A stretch of 64,000 nucleotides of DNA, taken from Mizuhopecten yessoensis. Taxonomy: Eukaryota. The stretch spans positions 139,372-203,371 of the forward strand of contig NW_018408812.1 of the NCBI RefSeq assembly GCF_002113885.1, read 5' to 3'. Under the pieces are notes generated by a model, which saw only the letters and a program-made list of their open reading frames with translations, was not told the origin of the DNA and made no database searches. The position numbers and the translations under genes were made by a program. This document shows, one piece after another, positions 2,175 through 51,240 of this stretch. Every line of letters starts with the position of its first letter. Positions within the stretch are counted from its first letter, which is position 1.

Positions 2175-5100
2175 CTGCAAACAAAAAAGCGATCCCTTTT
2201 TGAATATTTTCCGAGATTTATTATGTATTGCAATTATTTCACCTGAAAAATCAACACATTGTCAATGTCTAATTCCAAGCATTAAGGAAGAAATGCATAT
2301 CTTTTTTAACTGATTATAGATGATAGCCAAAGGACTTTGACTAAATATCATATACATATAATTATGCTGGTTTCAAAAATTACAACAACAATATAATTTT
2401 ATCAATTTTAGATGTTATGGCAAAATAATTATTTCATAAATTATCTAGATAAATGACGTCTTGTTACATGTACCTTCCCGAGAAGTTCCGAAGGACAGAA
2501 TCCTTCGGAGACGAAGGAGGGTTCCATAGGGGGTACAAGTTGTAGTGGTGAAACACCCAATCCGATCTGTAGGAGTCCGGCATCGTGTGTACGGAGCGTC
2601 GGTGTCATGGTGATCCTGATTCCGGAGCTGTCTATAATATCTAGGGAATGGATCAAAATATACGTGTTAGGTTCGGGTATACTACATTTTCCAAATAATT
2701 CTTAGGGTTTCTTCACAGATTCACACATAGCACATGAAGACTATAACATTAATTTCAAATTCATTTTCTAGAAATTATTTATTTCCGTGAGTTTTGAAAT
2801 TTAGACTCTTGTCTTGTTTCATTATCCCTAAAGCCTTTTAAAACATTTTTTGACAATTTGCTTTCATTAGTGTAAGTGATTTGATCCACTTCAATACCTT
2901 TTTGTCTTTATTCACATTTTCCAATATTAACAATATTCGAAATTACATTCAAAATATTTTATGAATGCAAATGAATGCTGAAATTGAGATTTTTCTTTTA
3001 TGTTAAAGATCATGATGAACCTGGTTGTATGTTATTTTGAATAAGCCTTCTTTATAATATTCAGATATGCTCTTGAAATTAAGAAATTCAATAAAAAATG
3101 TTAGTTCTCGAAATGTCGAAGTATATAATTGACGTTGCCTGTTTAATTTGAGAAATAGCTGCCTTATATTCTCTCTATAAATAAAAAATAAAAAATGCAA
3201 CCAAAATAGAACATTTAATTATATGGAGCTGTAATTCATTTTCTATCTAGGTATATTGTGACGTCAACTACCTGATTTAGCCAGTGGGTTATCGAAGTGT
3301 GTCTCCATGACAAAGAAGTCGGGGTCAGCATCCGTCCCGAGGGAGTACCCGGCGGTAGGGGGATAATAGAACGTCTGCCAATAAAAAATAAGAACAGGCA
3401 CTAACATTTAAGATAAAATACAAACATATTTCTTAAAATAACATTCATAAGTTTAGTATGAGTATGAAGGCTAAATTTGCTTTAAACACAAACAGGAATA
3501 GAAAACGTATCTTGCAAGCTTTCGATAACGCTGTTTCATTTGTCAAGCAAGTGTGTAAATGACTGATGTCTGGACCCTAAACTGCTGTAAACAATTCACT
3601 AGGCTACAGTGTGTCTAATCAGTAAAGTCGGCTGTCAAAAATCATAGCAACTTATCGCCCAATAGCAATCCGACTTTCTATGACTTTGTAGGTAACAGAA
3701 TAGACCAATCAACCTGGAAGTTTCTCGATCAGATATTGTGTTGTCCAGGTGTACCTCATATTTGGGCACATTAATTGATGTTTTGGACATTTTGGTAGCG
3801 ATTTGGAGAGGTCTACGGAGGAGAGTAACCTAATTAGAGTACTTCACTTATGAAATCCAATTAATTCATCCCCAAAAACCGATCCATGTAGAAGGTGTTT
3901 TGATAATTTAGCACTTTTGCTCATATGATTGAACTGCATATGTATACCTTAGCATACAATATTCGATGTCATCTATCATCCAAATCTCTCTCCGCTTAAG
4001 ATATTCCATGTTTTGTATGATGACCCAGCCAACCCCAATCTTAACCCCTTTTTAAGTCCACTATGCTTTAGTAGAAATTTTGTTCACCAGATACCAAGGA
4101 GATACGTACCTCTCCCCCAATGGCCCACGCCAATATCACCTTGCTGAGGCACCCACGAAGGGGTTCCGGTACAGTCTCACCTTTTTCACACCGGAAGTGG
4201 GCGCCGTCATAGGAGGCCAATTCCGCAGCACGCTTATCGCATTTAAATATGAGTATGTGGTGAACGTTCAGCTCATTTCCAGGTGTAACTATTGGTTCGA
4301 ACTGAAGGTTAAAATAGGACATAACAAATAATATTAACGTATACACTAATCGCTTTTACAAGTTTCATGAACACAAGTGCTAAAAATTTTAAATATAAAG
4401 TTCAGTTCTATACCTTAAATATATTTAATTATTTCTTAACATTGGAAGTGTGCTGAGCTCTTTACGTACACGAAACCTTAAATCGTACACCTGGTTAAAA
4501 TTTGCTACTTATCATAGCAATCTCCTTATTCGTAATCGACACAGTAAATCACATTAATACCTTGATCATGTGGTGCTTCTTGGTCATTTGTGGCAACTTG
4601 AAGGCTCGACAAAAATAAGTCGTGGTGTCGGACGGAAGGTGGTACTGAGTAGTGACAGAAAAATAATCAGTTTGAACTTTTCGTAAAAAAGAAAGACAAT
4701 CAACGTCGTCTACAGTAATTGTACCGTATGATATAAAAATGTTACATCTAATACACAAAACTAAACAAAAAAGTGTACTATAATCAAACAAGAAAAAACG
4801 CAATGGTCCAGTTACACAAGATAATGTGGCGTCAATCAAGTATTTTTCTGTTCCCATTTCAACATTATTATGAGGTGAGGTCGAATACCTGTGGAAATTG
4901 ACAAAAAGCTTCGAATCCTGTTTAATATAAGGATTATTTTTGGTAAATCATGATTATTTATTGCAGACTCATGATGTCCTTTGTAGGCTAATGACGTTAC
5001 ATCAAAACCGACTGTCATTAACATTGCCCTCGGAGAAAGTACCCATCTTCATCTTTCAAAAGTGCCTTACTGTGTCCTGTGGAAACTGGTGTTTCGAAAG

Positions 5101-8100
5101 GCAACTAGCACATTGTGGAATATTTGACATTGGCTAACAAATCAGACGCCCTTAAGTAGGTCGTTGCAATTCACCTGTTCTCAGCTACATTTGGAACTTT
5201 CCAATTCAGTCAAATTTTAATGAAAGATTTGCTGTGTTTGCTTTATGTAAACTGATTAATCAATAGGCCTTCATCAAATACTACCTTAAAGTGAGCACAT
5301 TTATGATAGTGAACCATCTTTAAAAAAAACTTTGGCATGACTAATAATTCCTTACATTGAAGGAAAAACATTAAATACAGACTATAAGATGAAGATGAAC
5401 AAATGACAAAGAAAAAACCTCTGACGAGAACAGAACAACTGTTAATAGTAATTATAATAGTACGCAGCATTTATATAGCGTCCTATATAACTTGTAAAAT
5501 TACTCTAAGTCGCTTTACATCACACGAATAATAGTATTTTTACAGTGACAGTTATAGATATAGGTGATATAAAATCAGCATTAATATATTAAGTAAGAAG
5601 ACAATAATCTCAATAAGCATATATTAATAAATATGTAAAGGGTGGTGTGTACATGATGTCTGTGCAATGAGTCTAAAAACTGACGTGAAGAAGTGGTTCT
5701 TTATATCCTTATTGTGTTTAGTCAATTGTTTTTTTAACTTTCTGATAGCAGATGATAAGCTATTTAAAAAAATGGCCGGAAACCTCACAAAGCGCCGGTT
5801 TCCATAGGTCACAGTACTAGATGTTTGGACACTCGACAATGATTATGTCTCCCAACGCAGTGATCGTGACGGCTGATACAGGGTAACAAGCTCCTGTAAA
5901 TACTAGGAAGCAGTTTATGCCGTGCCTTGTGTGTTTACACCTAAAATTTGTACTGCAACCTGTATAGATTATTTAATACAAATACCGACACTAATGTGCG
6001 CAGTTAAGAAGCAAGCTTACGTTGTCGTGAAGAAAGTCGTAAGTGATTGTGTCGGAGGGGATATGGACATCGTCAGCTGTCAAGGTCGAAGACAACAGCA
6101 GGACGCTCTTTGTTCCCCGCCTGGTGGCGCCATGGTAGGGGATATAACTCGTCACGTCTTCCGGATTATAGGAGAAGATAATTCTAGTGGTGTCATCCTG
6201 TAAAATATAGTGATGGCATGCTTTTATACAAACACCCGCATACAAAACTGAAACATGTCGTTACAATATATTTGAAATTTCGAACATGTAAATGGCTAAA
6301 AAAGAAAATATCTAGAAATCGATTTGGTGTAGCAGGGATAAAACACATACTTTATATGAATTATGACATTAATATTATTAATTACCGGGGATAAGATATA
6401 TGGGTTTTTTTATAACTGGTGAACGTTTATCTTTATTCAATTGGGATAATATACCTGTTATTTTATATATTTATTATAACATTACATAATTTGCTAACCA
6501 CCTTTCTATCTTTTTTGGCCATGTCTCATGTAGTAACTAGGATAATAGTTCAATGAAGATATAAAAAAAATCTCTTAATAAATACACGTATAATATACGC
6601 ATGGTTTTGCACACGTACCGTAATGACCATGTCGCCAACACTATCACATGTGTTGAGTTTGCGCACAAAGGTGAGGATTGTCCCGGATGCAGTTTCCTTG
6701 CCAGCGATAAGGAACCAGTCTTGTGATTGGTCAACTACTGGTGGAGCATGCTGGGTAGTGTGATAGTCCTGTGAAACAGACAAAATTTGAATTTATAATC
6801 CAGTATAAATCAAAACAGATGATGTAACTATCTAAAGGAAGACAGATGAAAACCGAATAAAAAATACTTGATTTAATTATATGTATTCGAATTGATTTAA
6901 ATTGTTTAATTTTTTCCCCATTTTAAATGATTAAATTCTGTGTACAACAAAAATGCTTCCTAATTACAAATTCAAGTGGATAATTTCGATTTGTTTTCAC
7001 TCCTGACCTTGCTTGTAACTACATATTATTTGTAACATTGCAGTCTAATCGTTCTGATATCATTTTCCCCCAATATTCACAGAACTAATTGTATCTCCTA
7101 ACTTTTTTTTACTGTTCATCGTTACTCTTTTAGTCCTTAGGACATGATTCTCTATCACCCCTTTTGGAAATGTATTCAAAAGGTATTCTCTGGGATTGTT
7201 TATGTCCCGTAAACAAACTTTTGCTCCGTTTCTTATTTTTTTGATTTATTTTTATTATTATTATTATTCTTATTTCTTCCACTTTCTTCCGCCGACGAGT
7301 TTTCCGAAATGTTTTTCGAAAACCGTAAGGCGGAATTCAACGAAACTGTTCATGAGTGTTCGTGTATGACAGGCGGTGCGCAAGAGTATTTTCGTTTTTC
7401 GATCGGTAATCCGACTGGTCAGCCGGACGGTGGCCTCTGATTGGTCGAAATTTAAATATTGTCCGATTTCGATCAAATTTGATATGTAGGTGAATCATGG
7501 GACAACGATCATTCAACCCCCATTTCCTGTTCTGTGATTGGTCAAAACTTAAATATTGTCAAATTTTGATCAAATTTGATCACTCGGCCCCCATTTCCTG
7601 GCCTCTGATTGGTCGAATTTTAAATATTGTCCAAATTTGATCAAAATTAGTATGTAGGTGAATCATAGGACAATGATCACTTCCGTAGTTTAGATTTCAC
7701 ATTTCAACAAAATGACCGCCGTTTTTTTCCTCTGATTGGTCAAAATTTAAATACTGTCCGATTTGGATGCAATTTGGTGCATAGGTGTAGTATGGCACTA
7801 CAAATACAACTGCGGTGTTTGTTTTGTGATTAAACACAATGGCTTCCAATTCATGACCTCTGTTCGATTTTTATGAAAATTGGTACATATGTATATAGGG
7901 GTATAAGGGGACTGTGAATAACCCTGCATATAATTTGTTACCATATAGCAACCACACGGAGGCTTCTGCTTGGTCGAAATTTAGTTATTGTTCGATTTTG
8001 ATGACAATTAGGGGACTGTTAATTCAATCGCACAGGAATCGTTGCCATAGCAACCACACAGACACTTCTGATTGGTTGCGATTCAGATATTATGCGATGT

Positions 8101-10295
8101 CACTCAAATTTAGTATGTATATTGTAAGTGTATTATGGCATTGCGAACCTTTTCTGATGCATCTTTGCGACTATGGGGGTAGTTTGAGGGACATCAGTAA
8201 TGGTCCCCTATTACAATTAGTACTTGTTATTATTATTTAGCCACAAGTATCAATCCTCGGATTAAGGTTTCTTTTCCTTTATTCTTAATTTAGAGAGATA
8301 CATCATTACACCAAGCAATTATAAATATTGTTAAAAAAAGCCATTCTCTTAACTTTCAATCCGCACACACTTTAATATCTCAGAGCTAGAGTATGAAAAA
8401 TGTACTGTGAGGATCACTAAAAGTGCGTGTCATACATATATGATATTACATATTTTTCAATTCTCTGATCAATGGATAAGACAACGAATAGTAATTTATT
8501 ATTGCATAAAATAATTTTGATTTCAGTAGGCTTGACAATGTAACACTCCATCCACGGCGATTACATATATGTTTCACAAAATTACACTTTAACACTTATA
8601 TGAGATGTTCCTGTCTCCCTCATACCTAATTGTGCACGTAATAGCCAATGGTGAAGGTGTTGTCATCATTGGTCTAATCTAGTCTGCACATAAAAGACAT
8701 TATAGGCATACCTTGAAGTAGGTTTGACCATCCTTGACTCCGCCCACGATGACGTCAGCAGGGAACATCTTTCCATTCGGGGAGATTCCAAAACCAATGT
8801 ACCCATGCGTGTTCACGTGTGTCTCAAAGGTCACGTGGGTGGCATTGGTGCTCCAAAATAGCCAGTAGTTACCCTCGGTATCAAGTTGTACATAATGCTC
8901 AAAATGTCGAGTTGGCGTCGGCTTTGATATCTGTAAGATTTGATTGAATTAATACAAACAAAATAAATGTATTATTTCTGAAAGCTATAATGAATAAAAA
9001 TGCGAATAAGTGCTAAATTGTCACCTCATGTCTATATGTGGTTTGAATTGTGAGGTATAATGATTAAATATACGACATTTTATATAGTGCCACATCTAGC
9101 TAGAATTAGCCACACTAAAGCGCTTTACAGTACATACATGTAGATATACAATTTATACAATCAATACAACTAGCATATACATTAATTAATACAATCTTGT
9201 GGAATTCGCAGGAGCTGCCTAATCAGGCGATAACTACTAGTCATATGCCACCTGGCTGATATATTCCTATGTGTGTATGCCTGCGTGTGTGCTGGAGATG
9301 TATTGTGTTTTGTTTGTTGTGGGACTGTGCTTCCAAAGGTATCATTTGTAGTGCCACCTCACTTAATTGCTACAGCACAAATACCGCAGACCATTTTATA
9401 CACTTCCGAGGTTGTTGGAGTTGTGTGGGCACTTTTTCTGACTATTCAATGCGTACAGCGACTTCATTTGCTGATGATTCACAACAAGCTGTGTGTTATC
9501 AGTGTATGGATTGCAGTACCTTTTATAGTGCGTGAATGCAAAATGTCTATGGATCGTTCGATAGTTATGTTGTTGACTATTGAAGATATTGATACGCTAA
9601 ACACACATTTTTATTTTACAGCTTAATTAGTACTATCTTACGCCCATTATGAAACAACTGACATTTAAACAATATGAGGACGTAACATTACCGGCATTTA
9701 CCTAAAGTTGACATGACAGGTTTCATCACTGGAACAGAAGACGCTTATCCGTTCGGAACATCTGGTCGTATTCTCCTTGTTCTTTTGTCAAGTGTCCATA
9801 TTTAAATATCTCCATGGTTTTAATTTCGCCCTAGCTTCATTGATGTTGGGTTCTAATCACGTTTTTGTCTGGTATTTTCTTATTACATTTTTTTCTCGAA
9901 TACTTGGACATAAAAATGAAGTGTGGAATAATAGATTATTAAGTTTGCATACTGTTTGTTGACGTAGATGTATTTTTGTTAATTTTTATGTAATATTATA
10001 ATAGGTATTATAATATGAAAGACGTCAGAAGTCTTCTTCATGTCAAGTTGAAGTAGAGAACTAGCAAAACAAGGAGCAGATACAAAAATAACCGATTTGC
10101 TGAAAGAAATGAGAAATACATCCATTAATAAACAGTCAAAAAACGTATAATGATTCTCACCTGAACAGAACTTGTACTTCTAACCTCCCGCTCCTTAATC
10201 AGCTGGGCAAGCCTGACATCGTCAACGACATCTGTCGAGTGCACCAGACAGAACGTCAGCAATCCTGCAAAAACAGTCAGTTTAAACGTGGCCAT
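1992..10295 (-). CDS. MOXD1: DBH-like monooxygenase (MOXD1-like) paralog A, 3'-partial gene model (exons 1-9, 470 codons in the window)
   Basis: Exons 10295-10161, 8930-8712, 6768-6619, 6197-6021, 4644-4561, 4301-4110, 3374-3272, 2640-2474, 2174-1992, all GT-AG and frame-consistent. Signal peptide, DOMON domain, CuH ligands (NVHHI, METHF) and CuM ligands (QHSH). Possible upstream in-frame ATG at 10301. Confidence 0.93.
2474..2640 (-). CDS. MOXD1: Paralog A exon 8
   Basis: DIIDSSGIRITMTPTLR...EGFCPSELLGK, 167 nt. Confidence 0.92.
3272..3374 (-). CDS. MOXD1: Paralog A exon 7 (third CuH His)
   Basis: TFYYPPTAGYSLGTDADPDFFVMETHFDNPLAKS, 103 nt, phase-1 end. Confidence 0.92.
4110..4301 (-). CDS. 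MOXD1: Paralog A exon 6 (CuH His-His)
   Basis: FEPIVTPGNELNVHHILIFKC...AWAIGGE, 192 nt. Confidence 0.93.
4561..4644 (-). CDS. MOXD1: Paralog A exon 5
   Basis: YHLPSDTTTYFCRAFKLPQMTKKHHMIK, 84 nt. Confidence 0.92.
5450..5930 (-). mobile_element. L2-type LINE 3' fragment (degraded)
   Basis: Minus strand reads YLQELVTLYQPSRSLR...TVTYGNRRF...NSLSSAIR, typical of an L2 ORF2 C-terminus, followed by an L2-like tail TGTAAAGCGAC...GACGCTATATAAAT and TAT repeats. Confidence 0.65.
6021..6197 (-). CDS. MOXD1: Paralog A exon 4
   Basis: DDTTRIIFSYNPED...YHGATRRGTKSVLLL...FLHDN, 177 nt. Confidence 0.93.
6619..6768 (-). CDS. MOXD1: Paralog A exon 3 (DOMON)
   Basis: DYHTTQHAPPVVDQSQDW...RKLNTCDSVGDMVIT, 150 nt. 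Confidence 0.93.
7252..8238 (+). mobile_element. Non-autonomous Helentron/HINE-like element with internal degenerate repeats
   Basis: TTA-repeat flanks; internal repeats of CTGATTGGTCGAAATTTAAATATTGTCCGATTT; subterminal GGGAC...GTCCC hairpin before TACTTGTT. Confidence 0.5.
8712..8930 (-). CDS. MOXD1: Paralog A exon 2 (DOMON)
   Basis: ISKPTPTRHF...GFGISPNGKMFPADVIVGGVKDGQTYFK, 219 nt, AG/GT. Confidence 0.93.
9068..9465 (-). mobile_element. SINE (5'-truncated), same family as 28615-29088
   Basis: Colinear similarity with 28615-29025; L2-like tail TGTAAAGCGCTTTAGTGTGGC. Confidence 0.85.
10161..10295 (-). CDS. MOXD1: Paralog A exon 1 (signal peptide and pro-segment)
   Basis: MATFKLTVFAGLLTFCLVHSTDVVDDVRLAQLIKEREVRSTSSVQ, donor GTGAGA; homologous to exon 1 of B and C. 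Confidence 0.88.
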
Positions 10296-11462
10296 TTCCA
10301 TTCGTCCTCTTTTCGGACTGGTGACTTTTCAAACTAGTACGGGGTTAAAATCTGTTATATAACGCCTGACTGGTATTTCACAACTGCTATCTTTAAACTG
10401 TGTAAACATTGTGAAATAAGACTCCCGTTACTTGGTAGGGTGATAGAGGAACGGTAGGATATTGCTAACATTGACAAACATTTAGGAAAAAGATTTTATT
10501 TAACATAAAAAAATTTAACAACTGTTATTGGTCCCCGATCAGATTTCCATAGGGCTATACCTGTTTTATTTTCTTCATGATTGTTTTTTCTATATGTTCA
10601 CTGATGTACAGTTTTCTTGTCAACCCTTGAATTCCTGTTAGACGTTAAACTGTCGTTACCAATGAATACGTGTTAATAGTATTGATGCAATATCACAGGG
10701 TTTTAAGATACATTTATATTAATAAACTCATAGAAGGCCTATACGAAACAGGACACAGGAAACACTAACCATTACGGGATTCATCATTTGTATGATTTGT
10801 TATGTTACTTTATCATTAAAATCCAATAAAGTTCTTTGGTATTAAAGCTCTTATATTTTTTTTATTTTTTTTTATTTACATTCAAGGTGGCGTTGTCCAT
10901 TTTTTCGACATTGTCTCTACTGATATTCTACTGAATAAGCGTTTATTATTGAAAACAAGCATCTCTCAATAAAAAAAATCTTTTATTGAATCAGACAAAA
11001 ATCGAACAAAAACTAGGTGTTTTCGACCTCTTCTGCATCACATGTGTGACGATATCAGACGTAAATCATTTGTTGAAGGGATACTCTAGATGTCTATTAA
11101 GTGATTTCCTAGCAAGGAGCCGAAAATGACAATACGAAGAGAGTAACACTGCGCAGTATCAGAATATGTCCAATTTTACTTCAATGATTTGACTATGTCC
11201 TTCATTATTTCCAAAACCAACTGCGTGGGTAGTTTTGATAAGTACTGTTAAATATTCGGCCCCCGTTACAAATAGCCTTGTAATTATTGCTGTTTTGATT
11301 AATCGCTCTTCGTGGTTTTTGATACTGGGAAACTATTAATATTTTTGCATAGCAGTAGTTTTAATAATTATCTCATCCCCAATTTTGAAGTTAGAGTTAG
11401 GGTTTCAAGGGTGTAACAAATGGAACATTTCTCTACACCTACTTTGCGGTTTATCTTATCAG

Positions 11463-11594
11463 CCTTGGGTGGTAATCCCTGGTAACTTAGATATCACGAG
11501 GGAATGACCTCTGTAATAAAGTAGCAGTCTAGCAACAGTGGTGTTTAGGAGTTATTCAGTCTTCCTACAGCCGGACACGGTACGTACTCATGTT
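11463..11594 (-). promoter_or_regulatory. Conserved non-coding block upstream of paralog A
   Basis: Reverse complement contains TGAATAACTCCTAAACACCA..GTTGCTAG and CGTGATATCTAAGTTACC, matching the blocks at 13277 and 29785. Confidence 0.7.
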
Positions 11595-12169
11595 TATCTA
11601 GCGTATATTACGAAATGCTGATAATTCTTTGAGTATATATTAAACCAGACTCTCTTTATTTTGCCAAAATTATGCAACAAGTTCTATCATTTTTTGTTTG
11701 CTCAGATATTAGCACGCAGATAGTCGTAGCTGCAGGAATTCGGAGTACACAGAGAAAAGTATTATGGTCACGCTGAATATATTTAAGTTACCCTAAGTTT
11801 TTTAACTGTTCGAGGCCCGATGTATGCTTTCTCTAAGTAAAGAACAATATATCATTTACATTTAAGACATTGTTATCTACATTAATTTAGAGCGGGTCAA
11901 TATGCTTATGTAGGAAGTATTGAAATACATGTAAATGTAATCTGGATTAAAACTACCGTTTTGTTAATTATTTTACCAGTGTTATTTCTTATTGATTTGT
12001 GTCTTCCCCAAAATTTTATTAGAAAGATTTGATCTTTGAAGCAAACTAATCTAAAGTTATCTTCCTTCATTCAATATATTTGTAACAATCCAATTTTAAT
12101 GTTTCCCTGACGAATGTGCATGAAACTTACATATCTAATTTTAACTGTAATAGATTCCTAGAGATGGTA

Positions 12170-12362
12170 GAATCTAAGTCAGTACCGGAACTGGACACAC
12201 AAAGCGCTTTAGTGTAATATGTACAAAATGAGTTCCCGTAAAAAAACTACTTTCGGCCAGTCCCTGTCGAATGCCCCACGTAGGCCTCGAACCTGCGACC
12301 CAGTGGCCGAAGGCTAGTGGTAGCCGAATGTCAGACGCCTTAACCAATTTGCCATCTCTTAC
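12170..12362 (-). mobile_element. tRNA-derived SINE head (V-SINE-like)
   Basis: A box TGGCAAATTGG and B box GGTTCGAGGCC, followed by a degenerate V-domain-like GTAGTTTTTTTACGGGAACTC. Confidence 0.65.
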
Positions 12363-12716
12363 CCTGTTCACCCACTTTGTATCATATACACAATGTAATA
12401 TTAACGTTATAGGTTGAATTCAGGGTTGACGTGACGTTAATGGATTGTTGACGTGGCGTCATTGTAGTGTTGACGTGACGTTATACCATTGTTATGGAAA
12501 GGAAAATCCTGCCGCCTAAACCCTAGGCTGAGATAAGGATATCCCCAACTAGTAAAATTGTGGATACACTTCCCCAGTAGTCCATCCCACATAGGTTCAT
12601 AAGTAACCGCAGTTCGGAAACCTTATTTTTCTTTTTACTAGGAAGAACATACTATACTATTTCAGTTGAAATGTTCAGTATTTCATAGACTAACATTCTA
12701 AAAGGTAACGTCATTT

Positions 12717-12766
12717 ACATCAATGTTAAATCATTATTATCAATGCATCATCATCAGCATCATCAG

Positions 12767-12834
<68 letters not shown>

Positions 12835-12866
12835 ACAACATCAATGTAAAATCATCATTATCAATG

Positions 12867-40914: not shown

Positions 40915-40960
<46 letters not shown>

Positions 40961-40961
40961 T

Positions 40962-40998
<37 letters not shown>

Positions 40999-43769
40999 AA
41001 ATGTTTTAAGGTGGACAATGACAGTTTCATATGAAAAGCGTTCTAGAATTCTTGATTGATTTTCCGTTTGAAAAAAATGAATAATTATGTATAGTTAACT
41101 GTTTTGTAAAAAAGACTGATGAAACTCTCTTTAAATTCGCTGATACTCCCCTCAGTTTCACTAATGCTTCACTAGTGACGGTTGAACGAGCATCATTTTG
41201 GATATATTTATATTGTAAAATTTGAATATAATATGTAGAACCTTCCTCAAATTTGTGCGACAAGATGAATTTTTCGTGTACTACAATATACATTTAGACC
41301 AAGGCTTTCCATAATAACAAAGTTCATTCGTAAGACACATTCGTTATAACACTTATACATTTCAGAGTCTAATAAAATAATGATAATAAAATATTTATAA
41401 TTATGAAATACATTTCTAGATTTTACATGTAAACATGACAACAACTTGGAAATAACAGTGTTACAATTTGAATTACGTCCTGTTGCAAACCAATACTATT
41501 TACTCATACCAAATTGTATGTATACTTGACAAAATACAGGTAAGTCATAATTTTGTTATGTATATACTTATGTCATTGGAGCTCAAAGAACCCTCCTATA
41601 ACACGTGTGTTTGAATCCGTTCCATAGATATCGTTGACAGTTCCGGTTTCCGCATCACCATCACACCCACACTCCGACCACACGATGCCGCGCTCCTAAT
41701 GATAGGAATGAGTGTGGTTCCGATGCATATGATTCCCCCTCTGGAACTAGACTTCGTTTCCCAAGGATATTGTCCTCCGGAACTTCTCAGGAATGTACGT
41801 AACTAAAATTCACTAAGCTTAATTGAAAATTTGTTTTGTATTTCATTAAATTTCTGGATTCAAAGGAAGTCTTTTAAAGTTAAATATTCAAAAACCACAT
41901 TATCCTAAAAAAAAATGCCAGTTATTGCAATGCGATTTTTTGTCATTTTATCATAGTTATACATTACGTGTTTTGTACATGAAACACAAAATATTTTAAT
42001 TTCAAGGAATTATAATGAAAGGTGTTAAAATTGATCTTTGTATCTTTCATAACAAAGCTTATCACTTGAAAAATTCCTTATTGAGTAATCCGATGATGAG
42101 AGTCTTCTTCTCCGACTGAATTATATATACACCCGAGGTTCGGCGTTGAATGCCAAGATCTAAAGCGTAATTTACAGAACAATGTCTAATGTTTTGTATT
42201 CCCGAAAACTCGTGAAAATTGATCAAAGGTCGAAGGGAAAACGCCTCAATATCCTATAACTATAATAGTTGCTGCCTGTGCAATATGGGGAATGGTCAGA
42301 AGGATGAAAATTATATCGTCACTATATCGGAAACATAATAGTTATATATTCACCTTATCATTATTGTGGCGTCAATTTCACTGATACAGTGTTATGTTTG
42401 ATATAACAATCTCCTATCGTTGCGAGAAGTATTTTCTGACACTTAAGCTACAGATCGAATGTCCTCACAAGAGAAATAAAATTGACAAAATTCATTGTTT
42501 CCTTCAAGTGATCCAATTACCACTTCCAAAAACTGTAACTAAGTATTAAAAACAGGTTTTTTTCTGGCATTACTATAAAACCATGATAAATCATTTCTAA
42601 AAATAAACTATACCCTGTGGGAATTTTAAGAAAAAGAAATATGATCACAAGGGTGTATTAAGTGAAAAAGTGCGAGGTTAGACCGGGGTTCGAACCCTGG
42701 ACTTTAGATTGTAATATAGACTATTGATGTAACCGATTGGGTCAACGGCAGTGTACTAGCCCGAATGTATTACAGTTATTTCCAAACGGAGGTTAAATTG
42801 AGGTTACTGTTTGTAGGAAAAACTACAGTGTAGTGGGACAAAGATAATTAAATATCATTAATGTTTGACTCTTTAATTAAATTTTCTGATATTTCGTTGC
42901 ACTTCTACTATGAGATTTATATATCATTATCATAAAAATAAAACAGGTGATTCTTAGGTATCCTATGTGAATCTAACTATCGATACATAAACCGAACATT
43001 AACATGAAAGATATGAAACGCGGTAAGATTTAATGTTAATTTGTCTTGAATGTACATTAGTACGTTTAGACTATTTGTTAAAAAAAAGAAAACCCGAAAT
43101 TCTTCACATTTCAAAATGTTATTACATGTGTTTTTCTACTCTAAAAACATTTTATTTCCTTCTTCGCAGTTTTTTAACAAATAGTATAGTATGTTGTTTA
43201 TCTTTGTCTCCTATACCTTTATTATACCTGTAATTTTAAAACCGACTCAGTTACGTTGTGTAGGGTTTTATTTAATTTGGACTCCTCCTAACTGGAAGAG
43301 GTCTGTGTATTGCTGTCTGCCATTGTTATTACCCGACGATCGACACTTCTGTTTTCTGATTGGTCAACATATCATTTGTCACGGAATGTCTCCTATCTTT
43401 ACTTTAATTGAAGTTGTCGGCTTGTATTGTTGACGTCTTGCACAGGTGTCCGGGGTTGCAAGTCAACATCTTATTCTGTAAAACTCTGAGCATGGTATCG
43501 GCCAATCGCTGCAAAGAAAAAGTTAACATCATTTATTTTTTTTTAATTTTATTTTTTTATTTTCAAAGGTTTTCAGAACATGTACATTATACAGAACATC
43601 ACATCAACACATATCCACACATTCACACATATCTACTATTGAAATTATCAGCAACCTCAACCTCCTCATCATCCTCATCATCTGATGCTGATTTTATACA
43701 ATCACCAAGACATATTCAATTTTCACACACTTTCACACATAGAATAGACAAAACAAATGGACAAAGAGC

Positions 43770-43806
<37 letters not shown>

Positions 43807-46800
43807 AGACTGCCAAATCTGAGAAGATACTAAATAAAATAAATAACTGCTGTGAGTATTTGTCAATATTTTGTTTTTTTTAAGTAGAATAACAACTAAT
43901 AACTTAATATAAATAGTCATAATATTCAGGGTTAGTTGAGGTCAAGCTCTACTAATTTTAACCATTTTTCCCATTCAGAAGTAAATCTTCTAAGGCCTTG
44001 TTCCCCTTTACCACGAGCAATATATTTCTGAACCTTATAGTAATCTTTAATCGAATTGACTAAAGCCGTCACATTAAGTGACTTATGAAAACATCTGGTT
44101 TTGTATATATATTGTTTAATGAACAGAGTAATTTCATTATCAATTCTGGTATAAATTCCAGTTTGGTTGATAAAACCAAAGATCATTGATTCTTTATTTA
44201 GTGAGAAAGGAATAGTGAGAGCACTTAAAAGACTTTCAAAATTGCTCAGAAATTTTTGTACTTCCCTGCATTCCCATAAAACGTGGGTAATTGTCTCCCT
44301 TTCTATGATACAAAAAACACAGTGTGGGTTATTTACAAGTCCAATTTTGCATAAATAAGAATTGGTTGTTAAAATATAATGATTAATTCTAAATTGCAAC
44401 CATTGCAATTTTGTATTTTTTGTAACCCTGAAAGGAATAGCATATATTTTCCCCCAAGTTTCCTGATTATAGTCGAATATAGTTCCCCATTTTGTTTGAG
44501 CAGTTATTGATGCATTATTTCTGATAAGTATATTATAGAAGTCTTGAGAACCTTTTTTCTTCTTTAAAATTATTACAAGATGTAACGGTATAATTGGGTA
44601 TATCACATTTTTGTTTGGCAAATTAAGTTGTTTCAGATAATTCTTTATGCTTGTTATCAAGCCATGATATTCTAGATAATTAGTTATTGTACCATGTAGA
44701 TCACAAAATTCCTTAAAAGACAAGAAAGAGTAGTCTGTGTTGTTTTTCAACAAATCATTAATTATCATAATCCCGTTTTTAAACCACTTACTATAAAAAA
44801 CAACTTTATTACCAACAGAAATATTTTTGTTATACCATAAGGGTGTCTTAAGTAGGGCAAAATTCTCATTTTTAAACAGCTCCTCTTTTGCTCTTAATTT
44901 ATACCATGCCCTAAACACATCTTTCCAAAACACATTTTTGCAATTTCCTTGAACTTTATTAAGGTACTCGTTTCCTGAGTTAGCCAAGATATGAGGATTT
45001 ACACAAGATTTTAAAATGCTTACCCATTTACCTTCTGATCTAAAAAACCTTCTTATCCAACTTATTTTCAGAGCTTCAATAAAAGACATTAAATTAACCA
45101 TTTTTAGCCCACCTTCTTGATAATTTTGGATTATTATGTCCCGTTTAATCTTATCAGTTTTGCTATTCCATAAAAAATTGAAAAGAACAGAATTGAGCTG
45201 TTTTATAAATTTTTCAGATGGATTAGGTAAGGAAATGAACAGATGATTCATCTGAGAAATTAATAAAGATTTAATGACATTAATTCTACCAATAGGTGTG
45301 AGCAACCTTCTACTCCAGCTCTTAATAAGAGCTTTAAGTTTAACTAATTTTTTATCAAAGTTCATTTTAGGTATTTTGCAAAGATCTACATGGAAATCTA
45401 TCCCAAGAAGAGTAAATTTATTAACTCCCCATCTAAGATTCATATTTGGAAGGAGAACATCATTGCTGTATTTTTTACTGCCTATCCAGACAACTTCAGT
45501 TTTACCTACATTTACTTTAAGACCAGATATTTTTGCATAAATATTTAGTTCATCAACCGCCCCTTTCAGTGATTTTTCAGAACCATCTAATACCAGAGAA
45601 GTGTCATCTGCATACTGAGAGTTTAAGATGGGACAGTTATTAACCTTTATACCAGTTATACTCTTATTGTTTCTAAGGCGGATTGCTAAAACTTCTGCAC
45701 ATAGTATAAAAATATATGGAGCGATGGGATCTCCTTGACGACATCCACGATTTATTTTGAAAAAAGCTGATAAATTACCCCCCTGGTTTATAGCAGAGCT
45801 TGAATTACAGTGTAAAATTTTGACCCAATTTCTGATATCGTTTCCAAATCCAAAATATCTAAGTACTTCGTCTATGAATTTCCAAGAGACAGAATCGAAA
45901 GCCTTTTCAAAATCAACCATTAATAACATTCCAGGGATATCATTTTCCTCTGTATATTGCATAATGTCATAAACCAGGCGAGTATTTTCTCCTACATAGC
46001 GTCCCGATATAAATCCTGATTGATCAGAGTTTATAATTTTTTGTAAAACTAATTTGAATCTACTTGTTATTGATCCAGAAGCAATTTTGTATACAATGTT
46101 TAATAGAGAAATAGGTCTCCAATTCTTTATAAAATACTTTGATTTATTAGCCTTAGGTATACAAGTAATTATTCCCTGACGTTGTGTAATAGATAGCTGA
46201 CCATTTGAAAAACCATAATTTAATGCCCTAACCACAAAATTACCTAACTGATTCCAAAAACATTTATAAAATTCTGATGTGAATCCATCTGAGCCTGGGC
46301 TCTTATTACTTTTCATATTCTTTAGTGTTATAGATGCTTCTTTAAGTGTAATAATACCTTCCAAACTGACCGCTTCTTCAACATTTAATCTTGGAACATC
46401 AAAATCTTCTAAAAATTCATCCAAATCTATGTCATCGACTTCATTATCAATAGAATACAATTGTTCATAAAAAAATTTCACCTCATTTAATATATCTACT
46501 TGTTTAGTTAGAAATTCCCCATTTTCCTGTTGTAACTTTGGAATGATTTTTGATGTAAAATGTCTATTTTCTAAATTAAAAAAATAATTGGTAGGTTTTT
46601 CACCCTCATCAATCCATAAGGCTTTTGCACGTATTATACTCCCTTTTATCCTATGTACTCTAATCTTTTCCAATTCCTTTTTTTTCTCAAGTAACTTGTC
46701 TAAGTCTACATTATTCTCATTTTCCAGTTCCTGTATTTGATCTATTAAGGTCTTTTCCCTTGCCCAACACTGTTTCTTTTTATAGGAAGAATATGAAATT

Positions 46801-49800
46801 GACTTACCTCTAATTTCCATTAATAGTGTTTCTAAAAATAACTGATCATTTATAACAAACTGTAAATCTGAATCAGGTATATCATCTATATTTTCAGGAT
46901 TATATATAGGAAGGCAATACTGTAATTTAACTGTTTTAATAGTATCATTAATTATATTAAGATATTCCAGGTCATATAATAAGGAACTATTTAACTTCCA
47001 TAGACCTTTACCTTTTTTAAATTCGTTAAATTTTAACATAATTTTGGGGAAAGAATGGTCTGATCTGTAACCTGGATCTATACTTGTCTCACATACACTT
47101 TGTAATAAGTTCCCAGAAACCAAAAAGAAATCTAACCTAGCCTGCTTGATAGGTTTACTCCTGCGCCATGTATATCTGGAAATGTCAGCATGCTGTTCTC
47201 TAAAAACATCCACTAAATCAAAGTTATTTATTATTTCTAATATCCTTTCACGAGCCTTTGGATTATTAACATTTTTGTAGCTTTTATCACAATCTAAATC
47301 AGGATTAAGAACTAAATTAAAATCCCCACAAATAACACAGCTATCATTTTTAAACTCATAGAGAGTTTCTTCTATTTTATCATAAAAAGTTGGGTTGTCA
47401 GAGTTTGGACCATACAATGTAATTAAAGTTATTTTCTTACCTTCAATTTCTAGATCCAATGCCAAAAAATTCCCTGTCAAGTCTTTTTTTTCCTTTATCA
47501 CCTTGACTTCAAAATTGTTATTGATAAGTATTGCTACCCCCCTTGCATTAGATTTAAAAGAATTAAAATAGCAGTTATAGCCCCATTCACTCAGTAATAT
47601 TTCTTCCTGTTCATCGGTAAAGTGAGTATCTTGCAGACAGTAGATATTGTATTGCCTATCTCTTAAATAAGTAAAAACATCCTTGCGCTTAACCTTGTCA
47701 CCAAGGCCCTGGCAATTGGCAGATAATATCTTAATTCCCTCCACAACTGTTTAAGAAATTACAATGCATACAAAAATGTATGGAGTTACATCATTATAAA
47801 ACTTGTGATAATATATCTCATACAATACAAGTGATAAATATAACGCTTTATTCCTCATTTTCATTACAGGCCTTACCACAAGAGGGCATTAACGCATTTG
47901 CGGTTCTACAGCACTCCCATCTACTGGGCAAAGAAATGATGACACGTATTTACCGGAATGGAAGCGAAATCGAACCACTGGCTGTAGACAGACATTATGA
48001 TTTTGATTATCAAGACATGCGCTACCTGTCGANTTAAAATGTTAGGAATCACTCTAGTATAATCAATGATTCCGCCCCTGAAAACCTACAACGTCACATT
48101 TTCCCTAAATTAGAGCTCACACTTATCGCCAATACTAAGCTTGTTAAACGTGAGAAGTTTCCCTTGACTTATTTTGGGAGAAGGGATATAGTAAATGATT
48201 CAATAGTCTATATATGTTTATAATGAGTATATAACATGTGGGATCCCATTTGGTCTTCTCCCTCTAACTTTTCATGAATTAGACGTCACACTGTTATCAC
48301 AATAATGTGTTACCGTGGAATGACTTGGTGTATTTGGTATATTTTGTAAGTTTATTACACTGTTGTGTGGACCCATTGAAGTAGTCATTTAATGGTCACC
48401 TGATCAGTTGATCTGTGAATACTCTCATCATGTGACCATAGTAGTTGAGGAAACGCCAAATACGAACCTCTCGAACGAACAACTTAATATAATAAACCTA
48501 TTGTTATAACAACTGTAATACAGGAATTATCGTTATAGATTCTACTTTGTAAAATACTCTGATGGGTAAAACATTGCATAAAAGGTATTTATTTAGTTTT
48601 ATTTATCAAGGGGTGAAAACATTACTCCATAGTATAAAACCTCAGATTTTCTTTTGATTTTTTTTTCAGGATGACAAAATCGAGGTGAAATGTGTTTACG
48701 ATTCAAGCAACAAACAAACTATTACAAAGGTAAGTAACAATGCAGTCTTTGTTATGTTTTAGTCCCCAAAGTTTGATGGTCAGAGTTATCTCTCTTACGT
48801 AGTGGCACGGTTCATAATACACACATTTAACAGATAAGTTCATTTGCAATTTACCAGTCCTCCTGTAAATGTTTAAATTCATAAATTAAGGGTTTGTTAC
48901 GCACCTGCTCTCTGATTCTATAGTAGCTTAGACAATTTGGATATCCTACTTTTTGTACCCTAGCATAATCGATGAGTCCTCATACAATTATGTAAGACGA
49001 ACCAGCTGTATGTTGTTGCAGTTTTATCCATTTACTGTATCTATCTTTAACTCATTGGCCCCTGAAGACACATTTGAACTCTTCCAGTTCAAAGGGTTCG
49101 AATAGTTCATTATGAAAATTCAGGGGTGTATGAGTGTTACGTTCATCGGTTAAGGAGGACGTTGTGATTGCTATGGAAGTGTGAGTCGGGTAGAGTCTAA
49201 GATATAGATTAGTTATATCAGGTATTTTCATAAGAGGTATTGTTTCATAATTACACTCAATAATGATATGCAACAAGGTTGGCGATATGCTATGAGTGTT
49301 TTGAAGTACATGTTAATTTAACTCTATTTACAAATTCTCTACATAAGTATCAAAGTGAGATTTGTTTCTCGAAGAAAGAAAACCGGAACATCAATAAAGA
49401 ATAATCATGATTAAAATTTTGTAAAATATAAAATATGCATACACGTGAAAATAATATGTGCATGTACTTATTTATTGTGAGACCGTACACATATACGTGT
49501 GCGCTACTAGCGCTTGAGAATGTGTTCTTCTGCACAATGAATTTCTGCCTGATGTTGGATTATACAAATGTATTGGAAACGTGAGTTTGTATAAAAAAAA
49601 AAGTATCAGTGTAATTTGTTATATCCTTAAATGATTATAGCAAATATGTTTTTGCAAAGTTATCTTCGTGATAATGATAAAGACCGGTTTAAATTGTATG
49701 CACTGTACATGGTGTAAAGGTTGCCAAGCTAGAGGTAACTTCCCTTTAACTCAGCGATAGAACGCTCGACAAACGTTTTGGTCACGGGTTCGATCCATAG

Positions 49801-51240
49801 CGGATGCTCGTATTCTTTTCACTACCTCACTCCCATCACAAACTGGTACCGTTGCCCTTCCCCGTAACGTTCAGGGAAGTGGAGATCCTTGAAAAGGTGT
49901 AAAAGAAATAATGTCAGGGTTGCCTTCGTGGGCGAAGACTTGGAAGAAAGAGAGGTGGTAATATAACAGATGTGCATAGCTTGGCTCGAGGGAACTTCCC
50001 TTTAGCGCCCGACTAGAAAGTCTGGAATCGCAGGTTTCAAATCCAAGCTAACGCACGTGCAGTGTATTCTGTTCCCTACTTACTACAACATTCCTTTTGC
50101 ATTCTTATATCAACCTCATTCTTATATATGGTTATCAAAAGACGTTTAAATGTAACATTAACGACTGGTAGGATACCAAAGACCTTATTAATAGAAAGAT
50201 AATTTCTAAATGAAAAAGAATATGACTTTAAAAGAAATCGTTGATATAATTTGACATTATGAAGAGGTAATTTGGTACAAAAGTATACAGGTTATGATAC
50301 TTCCTTCGCTTGAATTTCTAGTGATATTAATACATAAAAGGCGATTTTCACTGCTGACGATATGATAATGATGCAATTACACAAAAAAATGATGATATCT
50401 TTATAGAGTGGTTATGATAAGGATTTTGCTATCATTTGAAGCTGGTGTATTTATGTCACAACAAAGAAGGTCGTCGTTAACGGTGTAACTTATATTACAG
50501 GGAGGACTATCTACTCACGAGGAGATGTGTGAGGCATTCATTATGTATTACCCACGTACGCAACTTGACCTCTGTCAGAGCTTACCTCTCTACAACACTA
50601 TAGATGCCGATGTTCGAAACGTCTATTCTATAATCAAGACATGGAACTGGACAGATCCGGCGGTTAGGGCTAACTTCCGGTCAGCGCTGGACCAATCTGT
50701 ATATTACCACAACGCCATTGGAAGCACTGATGCCATCAGTGTAAGATTTGTTAGAAGACAATAAGAAATTTTAGCATTGTTATACTGACTTTAAACAAAT
50801 AAATATTGTAGCTCAACTATTCAAGACCAATGCTAGTTGCATAGCAATGCACGAGTTGTGTCTATCCATTTCTGACGAAAATATTGCCCATTGTTAATAA
50901 AGTCAGAATATTTCAATAAACGCATATAGTTTTTCAATATAGTTTATAGGGCAAAATCATTCTTTGTATCTAAGGACGACAATTGATTATAAGAGAGGGC
51001 CTTTGATTGCTAAATGTCAATAACATATGTTTGAATGAAAAAAAAAACCGAGTAGTTGACAGTTTAACAGTGCTCATCTCACTCCTAAAATAGAAATGTG
51101 TGTATATTGTACGTATCGCTTATTACCTTTTAAATACTTTGGTCATATTATTTATATTACAGGCGCACATTGCGAAAACGGAGCCCCCGACAAACCACCC
51201 GTATGTAAAACCTCAGGATACCAGATGTCCCTCTGATTAA
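30570..51240 (+). CDS. MOXD1: DBH-like monooxygenase (MOXD1-like) paralog C, 12 exons, about 594 aa; end of exon 9 lost at the N
   Basis: Exons 30570-30698, 33699-33917, 34546-34695, 36111-36287, 36975-37058, 38397-38591, 40805-40907, 41628-41794, 47870-(48032, N at 48033), 48670-48729, 50501-50740, 51163-51240. No stops or frameshifts in the sequenced parts; all Cu ligands present. Confidence 0.92.
31885..32372 (-). mobile_element. tRNA-derived CORE/Deu-type SINE with internal 124-bp tandem duplication
   Basis: Head GGAGGCACGGTAGTCTAGTAG..GGTTCGAGTC; CTCCCTGGGAGCATACAGCC; duplicated block 32030-32150 / 32154-32274; (TAT)n tail. Confidence 0.85.
33699..33917 (+). CDS. MOXD1: Paralog C exon 2
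   Basis: IPRPTPTRHF...QTYFK, 219 nt. Confidence 0.93.
34546..34695 (+). CDS. MOXD1: Paralog C exon 3
   Basis: DYHTTEHAPP...GDVVIT, 150 nt. Confidence 0.93.
35141..35328. mobile_element. Fold-back MITE (about 75-bp arms)
   Basis: ATTCCGTCTTTGCGTATTGCAGAGTTATCTTCTCTT... and its reverse complement ...AAGAGAAGATAAATCTGCAATACGCAAAGACGGAAT. Confidence 0.85.
35451..35607. mobile_element. Small MITE with about 38-bp TIRs
   Basis: TAAACGTGTCGCAACGGTTCAATATCGACTGGTCCCTTT / AAAGGGACCAGTCGGTATTGAAACGTTGCGAAACGTTTA. Confidence 0.8.
36111..36287 (+). CDS. MOXD1: Paralog C exon 4
   Basis: DDTTRIIFSYNPVD...LVHDN, 177 nt. Confidence 0.93.
36975..37058 (+). CDS. MOXD1: Paralog C exon 5
   Basis: YHVPADKTIYACRAIKLPHLTSKHHMIK, 84 nt. 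Confidence 0.92.
37242..37728 (+). mobile_element. 5'-truncated LINE 3'UTR insertion with 16-bp TSD
   Basis: AACAGGTGTAATGTAA at 37226-37241 and 37729-37744; ends AATAAA...TGAAATGA; paralog B has a single empty-site copy near 19609. Confidence 0.75.
38397..38591 (+). CDS. MOXD1: Paralog C exon 6
   Basis: YEPVITPGNELNVHHVVVFRC...AWAVGGE, 195 nt (one extra codon). Confidence 0.93.
39563..39636 (+). mobile_element. Tail-only copy of the 28615 SINE family or its partner LINE
   Basis: AAAGCGCTTTAGAGTGGCTTATGTTAGCTAGATAGGGCGCTATATCAAATG then (TAT)n; TTATCAA on both sides. Confidence 0.75.
40095..40549 (+). repeat. Copy of intron-4 segment 36548-36907 inserted in intron 6 between 19-bp direct repeats
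   Basis: TGATGGCTTCTACTGTAGT at 40095-40113 and 40531-40549; 40125-40507 is colinear with 36548-36907. Confidence 0.9.
40805..40907 (+). CDS. MOXD1: Paralog C exon 7
   Basis: AFYYPPSAGFSLG...MQTHYDNPLGRS, 103 nt, AAG acceptor. Confidence 0.92.
40915..40998. repeat. (GAT)n microsatellite
   Basis: About 28 GAT units directly after the donor GTAAGTA. Confidence 0.97.
41628..41794 (+). CDS. MOXD1: Paralog C exon 8
   Basis: DIVDSSGFRITITPTLR...QGYCPPELLRN, 167 nt. Confidence 0.93.
43534..47787 (-). mobile_element. L1/Tx1-clade non-LTR retrotransposon, antisense in intron 8 of paralog C (ORF2 + 3'UTR + A-rich tail, no ORF1)
   Basis: T-rich tail at 43534-43563; 3'UTR with (TC)n and GAT/GAG repeats; candidate TSD ACATCATT at 43526-43533 and 47788-47795; left flank aligns to the uninterrupted intron 8 of paralog B. 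Confidence 0.9.
43932..47744 (-). CDS. LINE ORF2: AP endonuclease + reverse transcriptase + C-terminal CCHC (zf-RVT), 1270 codons, uninterrupted
   Basis: EN motifs NCQGL, LQDTH, GDFN, RLDFF, SDH; RT motifs WRPISLLN, DFEKAFDSV, GCRQGDP, YADD; CVFC..ETITHVLWEC. The first codon is GTG. Confidence 0.95.
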   Translation of the reverse strand: MEGIKILSANCQGLGDKVKRKDVFTYLRDRQYNIYCLQDTHFTDEQEEILLSEWGYNCYFNSFKSNARGVAILINNNFEVKVIKEKKDLTGNFLALDLEIEGKKITLITLYGPNSDNPTFYDKIEETLYEFKNDSCVICGDFNLVLNPDLDCDKSYKNVNNPKARERILEIINNFDLVDVFREQHADISRYTWRRSKPIKQARLDFFLVSGNLLQSVCETSIDPGYRSDHSFPKIMLKFNEFKKGKGLWKLNSSLLYDLEYLNIINDTIKTVKLQYCLPIYNPENIDDIPDSDLQFVINDQLFLETLLMEIRGKSISYSSYKKKQCWAREKTLIDQIQELENENNVDLDKLLEKKKELEKIRVHRIKGSIIRAKALWIDEGEKPTNYFFNLENRHFTSKIIPKLQQENGEFLTKQVDILNEVKFFYEQLYSIDNEVDDIDLDEFLEDFDVPRLNVEEAVSLEGIITLKEASITLKNMKSNKSPGSDGFTSEFYKCFWNQLGNFVVRALNYGFSNGQLSITQRQGIITCIPKANKSKYFIKNWRPISLLNIVYKIASGSITSRFKLVLQKIINSDQSGFISGRYVGENTRLVYDIMQYTEENDIPGMLLMVDFEKAFDSVSWKFIDEVLRYFGFGNDIRNWVKILHCNSSSAINQGGNLSAFFKINRGCRQGDPIAPYIFILCAEVLAIRLRNNKSITGIKVNNCPILNSQYADDTSLVLDGSEKSLKGAVDELNIYAKISGLKVNVGKTEVVWIGSKKYSNDVLLPNMNLRWGVNKFTLLGIDFHVDLCKIPKMNFDKKLVKLKALIKSWSRRLLTPIGRINVIKSLLISQMNHLFISLPNPSEKFIKQLNSVLFNFLWNSKTDKIKRDIIIQNYQEGGLKMVNLMSFIEALKISWIRRFFRSEGKWVSILKSCVNPHILANSGNEYLNKVQGNCKNVFWKDVFRAWYKLRAKEELFKNENFALLKTPLWYNKNISVGNKVVFYSKWFKNGIMIINDLLKNNTDYSFLSFKEFCDLHGTITNYLEYHGLITSIKNYLKQLNLPNKNVIYPIIPLHLVIILKKKKGSQDFYNILIRNNASITAQTKWGTIFDYNQETWGKIYAIPFRVTKNTKLQWLQFRINHYILTTNSYLCKIGLVNNPHCVFCIIERETITHVLWECREVQKFLSNFESLLSALTIPFSLNKESMIFGFINQTGIYTRIDNEITLFIKQYIYKTRCFHKSLNVTALVNSIKDYYKVQKYIARGKGEQGLRRFTSEWEKWLKLVELDLN
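47870..48032 (+). CDS. MOXD1: Paralog C exon 9 (truncated at the N)
   Basis: ALPQEGINAFAVLQHSHLLG...DMRYLS then N; 20 nt plus the donor are missing relative to B. Confidence 0.9.
48670..48729 (+). CDS. MOXD1: Paralog C exon 10
   Basis: DDKIEVKCVYDSSNKQTITK, 60 nt. Confidence 0.92.
49713..50087 (+). mobile_element. Degenerate TRIM-like element with tRNA-like sequence in both short LTRs
   Basis: Two diverged repeats containing AACTTCCCTTTA...GGTTCGATCC / GGTTTCAAATCC; TGG PBS-like site at 49844; polypurine tract at 49943-49958. Confidence 0.6.
50501..50740 (+). CDS. MOXD1: Paralog C exon 11
   Basis: GGLSTHEEMCEAFIMYYPR...TDAIS, 240 nt. Confidence 0.93.
51163..51240 (+). CDS. MOXD1: Paralog C exon 12 (terminal)
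   Basis: AHIAKTEPPTNHPYVKPQDTRCPSD*. Confidence 0.9.
   Translation, partial: AHIAKTEPPTNHPYVKPQDTRCPSD

Follow-up and report, generated by a model that had tools for sequence, protein, structure and literature searches.

Three genes of 12 exons each, for monooxygenases with a DOMON domain and two coppers, are located in a stretch of 64,000 nucleotides from the scallop Mizuhopecten yessoensis (G000:C5485:139372-203371; referred to here as the window). Gene A is on the minus strand and genes B and C are on the plus strand. The initial annotation noted that pocket positions vary among the three and lack acidic residues found in dopamine beta-hydroxylase (DBH), and took this as diversifying selection on specificity with a non-catecholamine substrate. 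The question raised by this locus is whether the missing acids are peculiar to these copies, and what kind of selection, if any, has acted on the pocket. On balance, we favor the reading that A, B, and C are MOXD1-like proteins with all six copper ligands intact and no DBH Glu265, which fall into two scallop-wide types likely to have different small-molecule substrates.

Gene copies at the locus

A, B, and C belong to a tandem array of five MOXD1-like copper monooxygenase copies in the scallop and are already in databases, where they are labelled 'DBH-like monooxygenase protein 1' of Mizuhopecten yessoensis. The features are listed in Table 1. Exons 10-12 of gene A are located 1.5-4 kb before the window. 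Upstream of the window there is an intact copy D, then a 3' fragment between D and E, and then copy E, which has a stop in exon 11 and has lost the splice donor of exon 10. Pairwise identity among copies A-E is 71-83%, with D and E 97% identical. Among the database models, P0002 corresponds to gene C with part of exon 9 skipped and P0004 corresponds to gene A; both P0004 and P0223 join A with D in one model. The single N at which exon 9 of gene C breaks off is probably an assembly gap.

Table 1. Features of the scallop monooxygenase cluster. Positions are those of the window unless a contig is named.
Feature	Position	Strand	Remark
Gene A, exons 1-9	1992..10301	-	Located by tblastn and splice-site search; matches first half of P0004/P0223
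Gene A, individual exons	10301/10295-10161, 8930-8712, 6768-6619, 6197-6021, 4644-4561, 4301-4110, 3374-3269, 2640-2474, 2174-1992	-	
Gene A, CuH His-His and Leu at DBH Glu265 position	4251..4262	-	Leu codon starts at 4253
Gene A, Gln at DBH Glu366 position	2567..2569	-	
Gene B, 12 exons, 592 aa	14469..25449	+	Identical in sequence to database protein P0001 (DBH-like monooxygenase protein 1)
Gene B, DOMON exons 2-4	16168..18116	+	Met98 and His188, predicted heme ligands; A, C, D, and E have them too
Gene B, His267-His268 and Val270	19873..19884	+	Val270 at DBH Glu265/PHM Leu110 position
Gene B, Thr376	21775..21777	+	DBH Glu366 position; fastest-changing pocket site
Gene B, CuM Met497, Cys498, Glu499, Phe501	24832..24846	+	Glu499 at PHM Asn316 position; Phe501 at PHM Tyr318/DBH Tyr491 position
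Gene C, 12 exons, about 594 aa	30570..51240	+	Exon 9 end missing at an N
Gene C, CuH His-His and Val at Glu265 position	38436..38447	+	
Gene C, Met at Glu366 position	41699..41701	+	
LINE in gene C intron 8, 5'-truncated	43526..47795	-	1272-codon open frame (47750-43932); poly(A) end
Single N in gene C	48033		Exon 9 ends here, about 20 bases early
Gene C, CuM Met, Cys, Glu, Phe	50525..50539	+	Glu at PHM Asn316 position
Copy D, fragment, copy E (L032-L041)	G000:C5485:131410-114903, 86643-85546, 50343-38805		

Splicing of gene B was followed in two runs whose RNA nature is guessed by the search program, neither being recorded as RNA. All seven introns between exons 5 and 12 were joined in run X11, and six of the seven listed joints were present in run X13, which comes from a different study. 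The same joints were absent from the two DNA runs that were checked.

Two repeats lie in introns of these genes. The LINE in intron 8 of gene C looks young, its frame encodes endonuclease, RT, and zf-RVT domains, and it has a candidate 8-bp target-site duplication. Intron 6 of gene B contains a high-copy short repeat (about 20050-20580 of the window), at which contig depth reaches 200,000 compared to about 40 elsewhere; this is probably a MITE or SINE. The scallop genome as a whole has many paralogs (29 matches at about 20 loci). About 15 further PF01082 loci were seen (L002-L025); in those that were read, the Glu265 position is neutral in all except the DBH on contig C942. One of these loci (L021) has a tandem repeat that multiplies the exon segment with the His-His motif.

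The fold and the copper sites are preserved. All six copper ligands (CuH His-His...His; CuM His-x-His...Met) are present in A-E, and the two-beta-sandwich core of PF01082 and PF03712 was recovered both by Pfam on the exons and by comparison of the gene B model with human DBH (4ZEL) and PHM. The AlphaFold model of B has a pLDDT of 92 and superposes on 4ZEL with a Z of 45.3 and an rmsd of 2.9 A over 524 residues.

Pocket positions compared with DBH and with MOXD

The motifs quoted in the initial annotation for A, B, and C (TTTYFC/TTAYSC/KTIYAC, HHILI/HHAVV/HHVVV, LLQIGLGV/LLTIGIGV/LLMIGMSV, and the loops EKGET/ENTNT/EYYDQT), as well as EEMCEAF in B and C, were all found in frame and where they were expected. 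We mapped residues by alignment to 4ZEL (chain index +39, anchored on H262/H263) and to PHM, and use B numbering throughout. Val270 is at the position of DBH Glu265 and PHM Leu110, Thr376 at that of DBH Glu366, Leu420 at that of DBH Gln410 and PHM Arg240, Glu499 at that of DBH Val489 and PHM Asn316, and Phe501 at that of DBH Tyr491 and PHM Tyr318. In the alignment to 4ZEL the equivalents of Glu265 (Leu, Val, and Val in A, B, and C) and Glu366 (Gln, Thr, and Met) are neutral in all three proteins, as had been noted from the letters alone. Residue 420 is Val in A and Leu in B and C. None of the four members of the DBH substrate set (Glu265, Glu366, Gln410, and Tyr491) is found in A, B, or C.

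The new Glu beside the CuM Met-Cys is present in B and C (Glu499). Gene A has Leu there, in an exon that sits just before the window and reads EEMCLSF. The flanking scaffold had been called nearly invariant, but 104 of 295 core positions differ among A, B, and C (42 of 126 in CuH and 62 of 169 in CuM), compared to 20 of 157 positions in DOMON.

Whether the variable sites form a substrate pocket depends on the site. Passages in the cited work place PHM Arg240, Asn316, and Tyr318 in contact with substrate in crystals (PMC12164859), and DBH Glu265, Glu366, Gln410, and Tyr491 are described as contacts in a docked model (PMC3197665). Neither Glu265 nor Glu366 is mentioned in the DBH crystal paper, as judged by a term search of its main text (PMC4846438). 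Several of the variable sites align with these contacts, and the pocket status of 270, 376, 420, 499, and 501 is predicted from this alignment. However, residues 236, 269, and 271 (DBH Trp231, Met264, and Val266) probably face away from the cleft, since in the DSSP assignment of the B model they appear to alternate on strands with cleft-facing residues.

The proper reference for A, B, and C is MOXD, not DBH, and comparison with DBH inflates the surprise. The scallop has a separate DBH gene on contig C942 that yields P0206, named dopamine beta-hydroxylase-like, with the motifs HHMEV, IMELGL, SQLHTH, and EMCVNY; A, B, and C are thus not the DBH ortholog of this genome. This DBH retains Glu265, Glu366, Gln410, Val489, and Tyr491. 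The same contact set is kept in bivalve DBHs in general (6 of 6 aligned rows at 265 and 7 of 7 at 366, 410, 489, and 491).

As a comparison, we tallied residues in the wider family among the best matches to a mollusc-weighted profile (the best 150 of 19,198 in one search), which is not a random sample and leaves aside A-E, their three database models, and seven DBHs. In this set an acid occupies the Glu265 position in only 4 of 208 domain rows, one of them a DBH-like centipede protein, and the remaining 204 are non-acidic. An acid is found at the Glu366 position in 55 of 207 rows and at the Val489 position in 15 of 203, and Phe replaces Tyr491 in 147 of 202. Both acids are lacking in 132 of the 185 rows complete at five sites, one is present in 52, and a single row has both, with 154 different five-residue combinations in all. 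Platypus and lynx MOXD1 read Leu/Glu/Leu/Leu/Tyr at 265, 366, 410, 489, and 491. Acids at 376 and 499 were not mutually exclusive in these rows: of the 13 rows that are acidic at 499, 3 are acidic at 376 too, compared to 47 of the 172 rows that are not acidic at 499.

On a 197-row family tree, an acid at 499 requires 11 changes, with 10 carriers outside the scallop cluster. From the counts together with these changes, we take a neutral residue at 265 to be ancestral to the family, 366 to be hypervariable throughout, and the new Glu to be recurrent, having arisen in about ten other lineages. The repeated appearance of Glu also suggests that the position equivalent to PHM Asn316 is a reusable specificity switch. 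When the pocket columns were masked, A-E nested with support of 1.0 inside a clade of scallop sequences, itself placed among proteins named MOXD (FastTree, 197 rows), and no DBH row fell inside the non-DBH group, although support at the rooting node is uninformative. The loss of the DBH acids is an inherited trait of the MOXD family and not peculiar to these paralogs.

Selection on the pocket and two scallop types

We fitted codon models to residues 226-568 of paralogs A-E with our own GY94/F3x4 code, used in place of codeml and checked only by power simulations. Overall omega under M0 was about 0.26. No site or branch-site test was significant, and the diversifying selection proposed in the initial annotation is not supported. 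Comparison of M1a with M2a gave p=0.89 (2dL 0.22) for the catalytic region and p=0.56 (2dL 1.15) for the whole protein, M7 against M8 gave p=0.11, M8a against M8 gave p=0.15, and the five branches gave branch-site p values of 0.25, 0.19, 1, 1, and 0.07. At the five pocket sites defined from the literature, omega was higher than elsewhere (0.85 vs 0.254, p=0.005) but not different from 1 (p=0.66). A control helix at 521-535 was as fast, with omega of 0.91, and a control loop gave 0.59. The variable sites singled out at the outset gave omega of 0.92-1.20, also not different from 1, and these had been picked because they vary.

Other measures of pocket rate were mixed. In permutations against strand sites, the five pocket sites gave p=0.006, or p=0.058 when site 376 was left out. 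They were not faster than other sites in ten scallop proteins (rate test p=0.39), and their excess in family entropy was weak (p=0.14). For site 376 by itself, family entropy ranks at the 93rd percentile among strand sites. In simulations, selection at 4% of sites with omega 4 was detected in 11 of 12 cases, falling to 3 of 12 when 1.5% of sites had omega 4 and 1 of 12 when 4% had omega 2. Strong, widespread positive selection is therefore unlikely, and a small number of selected sites is compatible with the low power.

In all six paralog pairs, DOMON exons 2-3 have diverged less at synonymous positions than exons 5-8 and 10-11, reaching about a third to a half of the level there (pS 0.14-0.32 vs 0.32-0.64; Fisher p 0.02 to 1e-7, the pairs not being independent). 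The low-divergence stretches are 8930-6619 in A, 16168-16983 in B, and 33699-34695 in C, and high identity ends near the exon edges. Gene conversion is the likely cause, with a low local synonymous rate as the alternative. Conversion of this kind weakens codon tests that assume a single tree.

A clearer pattern emerged when ten proteins of the cluster were compared, drawn from four or more scallop genera and with copy E left out. Four of them are A-type (A, P0005, P0006, and P0007), with Leu270, Gln376, and Leu499; six are E-type (B, C, D, P0003, P0008, and P0012), with Val270 and Glu499 and with site 376 free. The two subtypes are 72% identical. Across residues 44-568, positions 270 (Leu/Val) and 499 (Leu/Glu) are the only ones that are constant within each type yet differ between them. 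Gln376 is fixed in all four A-type proteins and absent from all six E-type proteins. The fixed differences amount to two of the five literature sites as against two of 295 core sites (hypergeometric p=2e-4), which is partly post hoc because Glu499 had been seen before the grouping was made; one further split among the 210 possible 4-vs-6 splits also gives two fixed sites. The two halves of the Pecten model P0224, which was fetched later, read Leu/Gln/Leu and Val/Thr/Glu and both obey the rule. The E-type clade had bootstrap support of 95, and 98.7/95 with 25 pocket columns masked; it was not recovered in the family-wide FastTree, where supports are weak. The nearest outgroup, P0014, carries the A-type residues, and we take the E-type to be derived.

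These data point to an old, one-time shift in specificity that purifying selection would since have preserved while site 376 was tuned later, as opposed to ongoing diversifying selection. Such a history would explain why the rate test on the ten proteins misses the pocket sites. After an old duplication, the E-type would have gained a carboxylate where PHM Asn316 touches substrate and a smaller Val opposite, and Glu499 would anchor a cationic or hydrogen-bond-donating group. The later copies (B, C, and D) may then have tuned size and polarity at 376 and in nearby loops, mostly under purifying or relaxed selection.

A possible but less probable account is neutral drift, in which redundant copies under relaxed constraint have a pocket that tolerates many residues and the substrate has not changed. 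The failure of every test to raise omega above 1, the pocket omega that does not differ from 1, and the variation at 104 of the 295 core positions are all in line with drift, and the broken copy E and the fragment between D and E suggest birth-and-death turnover. It is harder to reconcile with an overall omega of about 0.26 or with the constancy of the A-type (Leu270/Gln376/Leu499) and E-type (Val270/Glu499) residues across four genera while the loops vary freely, and replacement of Leu by Glu beside a CuM ligand is a radical change.

Recurrent diversifying selection on the pocket, with shifting non-catecholamine substrates, is improbable in our judgment. M2a ranks site 376 in its top three and M8 ranks it second (posterior 0.88), and the raised pocket omega, the family entropy at 376, and the low power for few sites also leave some room for it. 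By contrast, the likelihood-ratio and branch-site results above do not favor it, a strong signal was detected in nearly all simulations, and exons 5-12 of gene B showed no exonic difference in four runs (contigs drop rare alleles). The least probable account, and one we consider very doubtful, is that B and C are amine beta-hydroxylases whose carboxylate has moved to 499 and which act on tyramine or phenylethylamines, for example to supply octopamine without a separate TBH: the alignment of Glu499 with a crystallographic substrate contact in PHM, the retained Tyr230 equivalent and copper ligands, and the absence of TBH reported in a bivalve preprint (bioRxiv 10.64898/2026.08.17.745212) are set against the genome's own DBH ortholog, in which every contact residue is present, a report of DBH and TBH as 1:1 orthologs (PMC10244343), the replacement of Gln410 and Tyr491 as well (by Leu and Phe), and passages of two papers that credit no MOXD with activity (PMC10244343; PMC11979771).

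Chemistry, physiological role, and likeness to known systems

In this enzyme family O2 binds at CuM, where a C-H of the substrate is hydroxylated, and an electron comes from CuH (PMC4846438; PMC12164859). A, B, and C are predicted to be secreted from an N-terminal signal peptide read by eye. By analogy with PHM and DBH, O2 would be activated at CuM, the substrate C-H adjoining CuM would be hydroxylated, and CuH would give the second electron and be reloaded by ascorbate or by a DOMON heme held by Met98 and His188. Residue 341 of B (exon 7), at the electron-transfer position of PHM Gln170, is Gln in B, C, D, and E, whereas A and most relatives have Glu there.

Heme binding by the DOMON domain in A-E is predicted. 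Met98 is conserved in 267 of 280 family rows and His188 in 256 of 266, and the pair is absent from bivalve DBH rows. The DOMON domain of B matches the heme-binding cytochrome of cellobiose dehydrogenase in structure (Z 14), in which Met and His are the heme ligands. A profile search of the PDB gave only weak matches to heme-DOMON entries (E 0.58 and 1.1).

MOXDs are described as 'not functionally characterised' (PMC10244343), and no MOXD substrate has been reported from any species (PMC10244343; PMC11979771). A phase-I role in odorant metabolism is proposed for Moxd2 (PMC11979771). Our literature search found no paper on MOXD pocket residues in bivalves. In bivalves, 13 duplicated DBH-like genes are high in the digestive gland of the glass scallop (PMC13212745), DBH-like paralogs are placed in the mussel larval gut as 'data not shown' (bioRxiv 10.64898/2026.08.17.745212), and one oyster copy marks a hemocyte type (PMC12064177). 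From expression of these bivalve relatives, possible orthologs of this cluster, the most likely role in the gut or digestive gland would be to oxidize small molecules of dietary or microbial origin, rather than to make noradrenaline. The non-catecholamine substrate put forward in the initial annotation is probable as a matter of physiology, but the residues by themselves do not imply it. Nor do they imply a non-amine substrate, because Glu499 could bind an amine.

A broader idea, which is tentative and which we rate as rather unlikely in full, is that animal MOXDs form a panel comparable to the P450s, made up of secreted copper hydroxylases with electron input from a heme-bearing DOMON and a few pocket positions that are retuned. 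In scallops, the change of Leu to Val at the Glu265 site and of Leu to Glu at the PHM Asn316 site would have made a subtype that binds amines or cations, which then multiplied while gene conversion kept DOMON uniform. If this is true, the A/B pair is a natural experiment through which a MOXD substrate could be identified for the first time. The absence of the DBH acids is ordinary in this family, and the two subtypes narrow de-orphaning to a few mutants.

Compared to PHM (1OPM, 1SDW), the scallop proteins share the two-copper core (Z about 25-29), the Leu at the Glu265 position in the case of gene A, and the Gln at the Gln170 position in B-E. Unlike PHM/PAM, A, B, and C carry DOMON and lack the peptide-carboxylate site formed by Arg240, Asn316, and Tyr318, with Leu or Val in place of Arg240, which holds the peptide carboxylate, Glu or Leu in place of Asn316, and Phe in place of Tyr318. 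Human DBH (4ZEL) has the same fold as B at 30% identity, and copper ligands, Tyr230, and the Cys pairs for five of six intrachain disulfides are common to both. By contrast, all four substrate residues of DBH/TBH are replaced in A, B, and C, the DOMON Met/His pair is missing in DBH, and the cluster has no Cys for the 528/530 interchain links and forms a clade apart from the scallop's own DBH.

The closest likeness by name and architecture is to MOXD1, or monooxygenase X, and the invertebrate MOXD-like expansion. These share DOMON, CuH, and CuM domains, six copper ligands, and the DOMON Met/His pair with the scallop cluster, as well as a non-acidic residue at the Glu265 position and Leu at the Gln410 position, and databases use the MOXD1 name for these proteins. 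One-to-one orthology with vertebrate MOXD1 would be only a possibility, the tree having a single vertebrate representative and the scallop many paralogs. Mammalian MOXD1 differs in retaining Glu366, Leu489, and Tyr491, where A, B, and C have Gln/Thr/Met, Leu/Glu/Glu, and Phe. A C-terminal membrane anchor is not evident in B and C on reading the sequence. The cluster also lacks one disulfide: Cys at DBH position 394 (B residue 404, exon 8) is kept in 183 of 204 rows of the family but replaced by Leu in each of A-E, and its partner at 565 (exon 11) has no Cys either, so that the Cys394-Cys565 pair has been lost together. P0014 and P0015 likewise have no Cys394.
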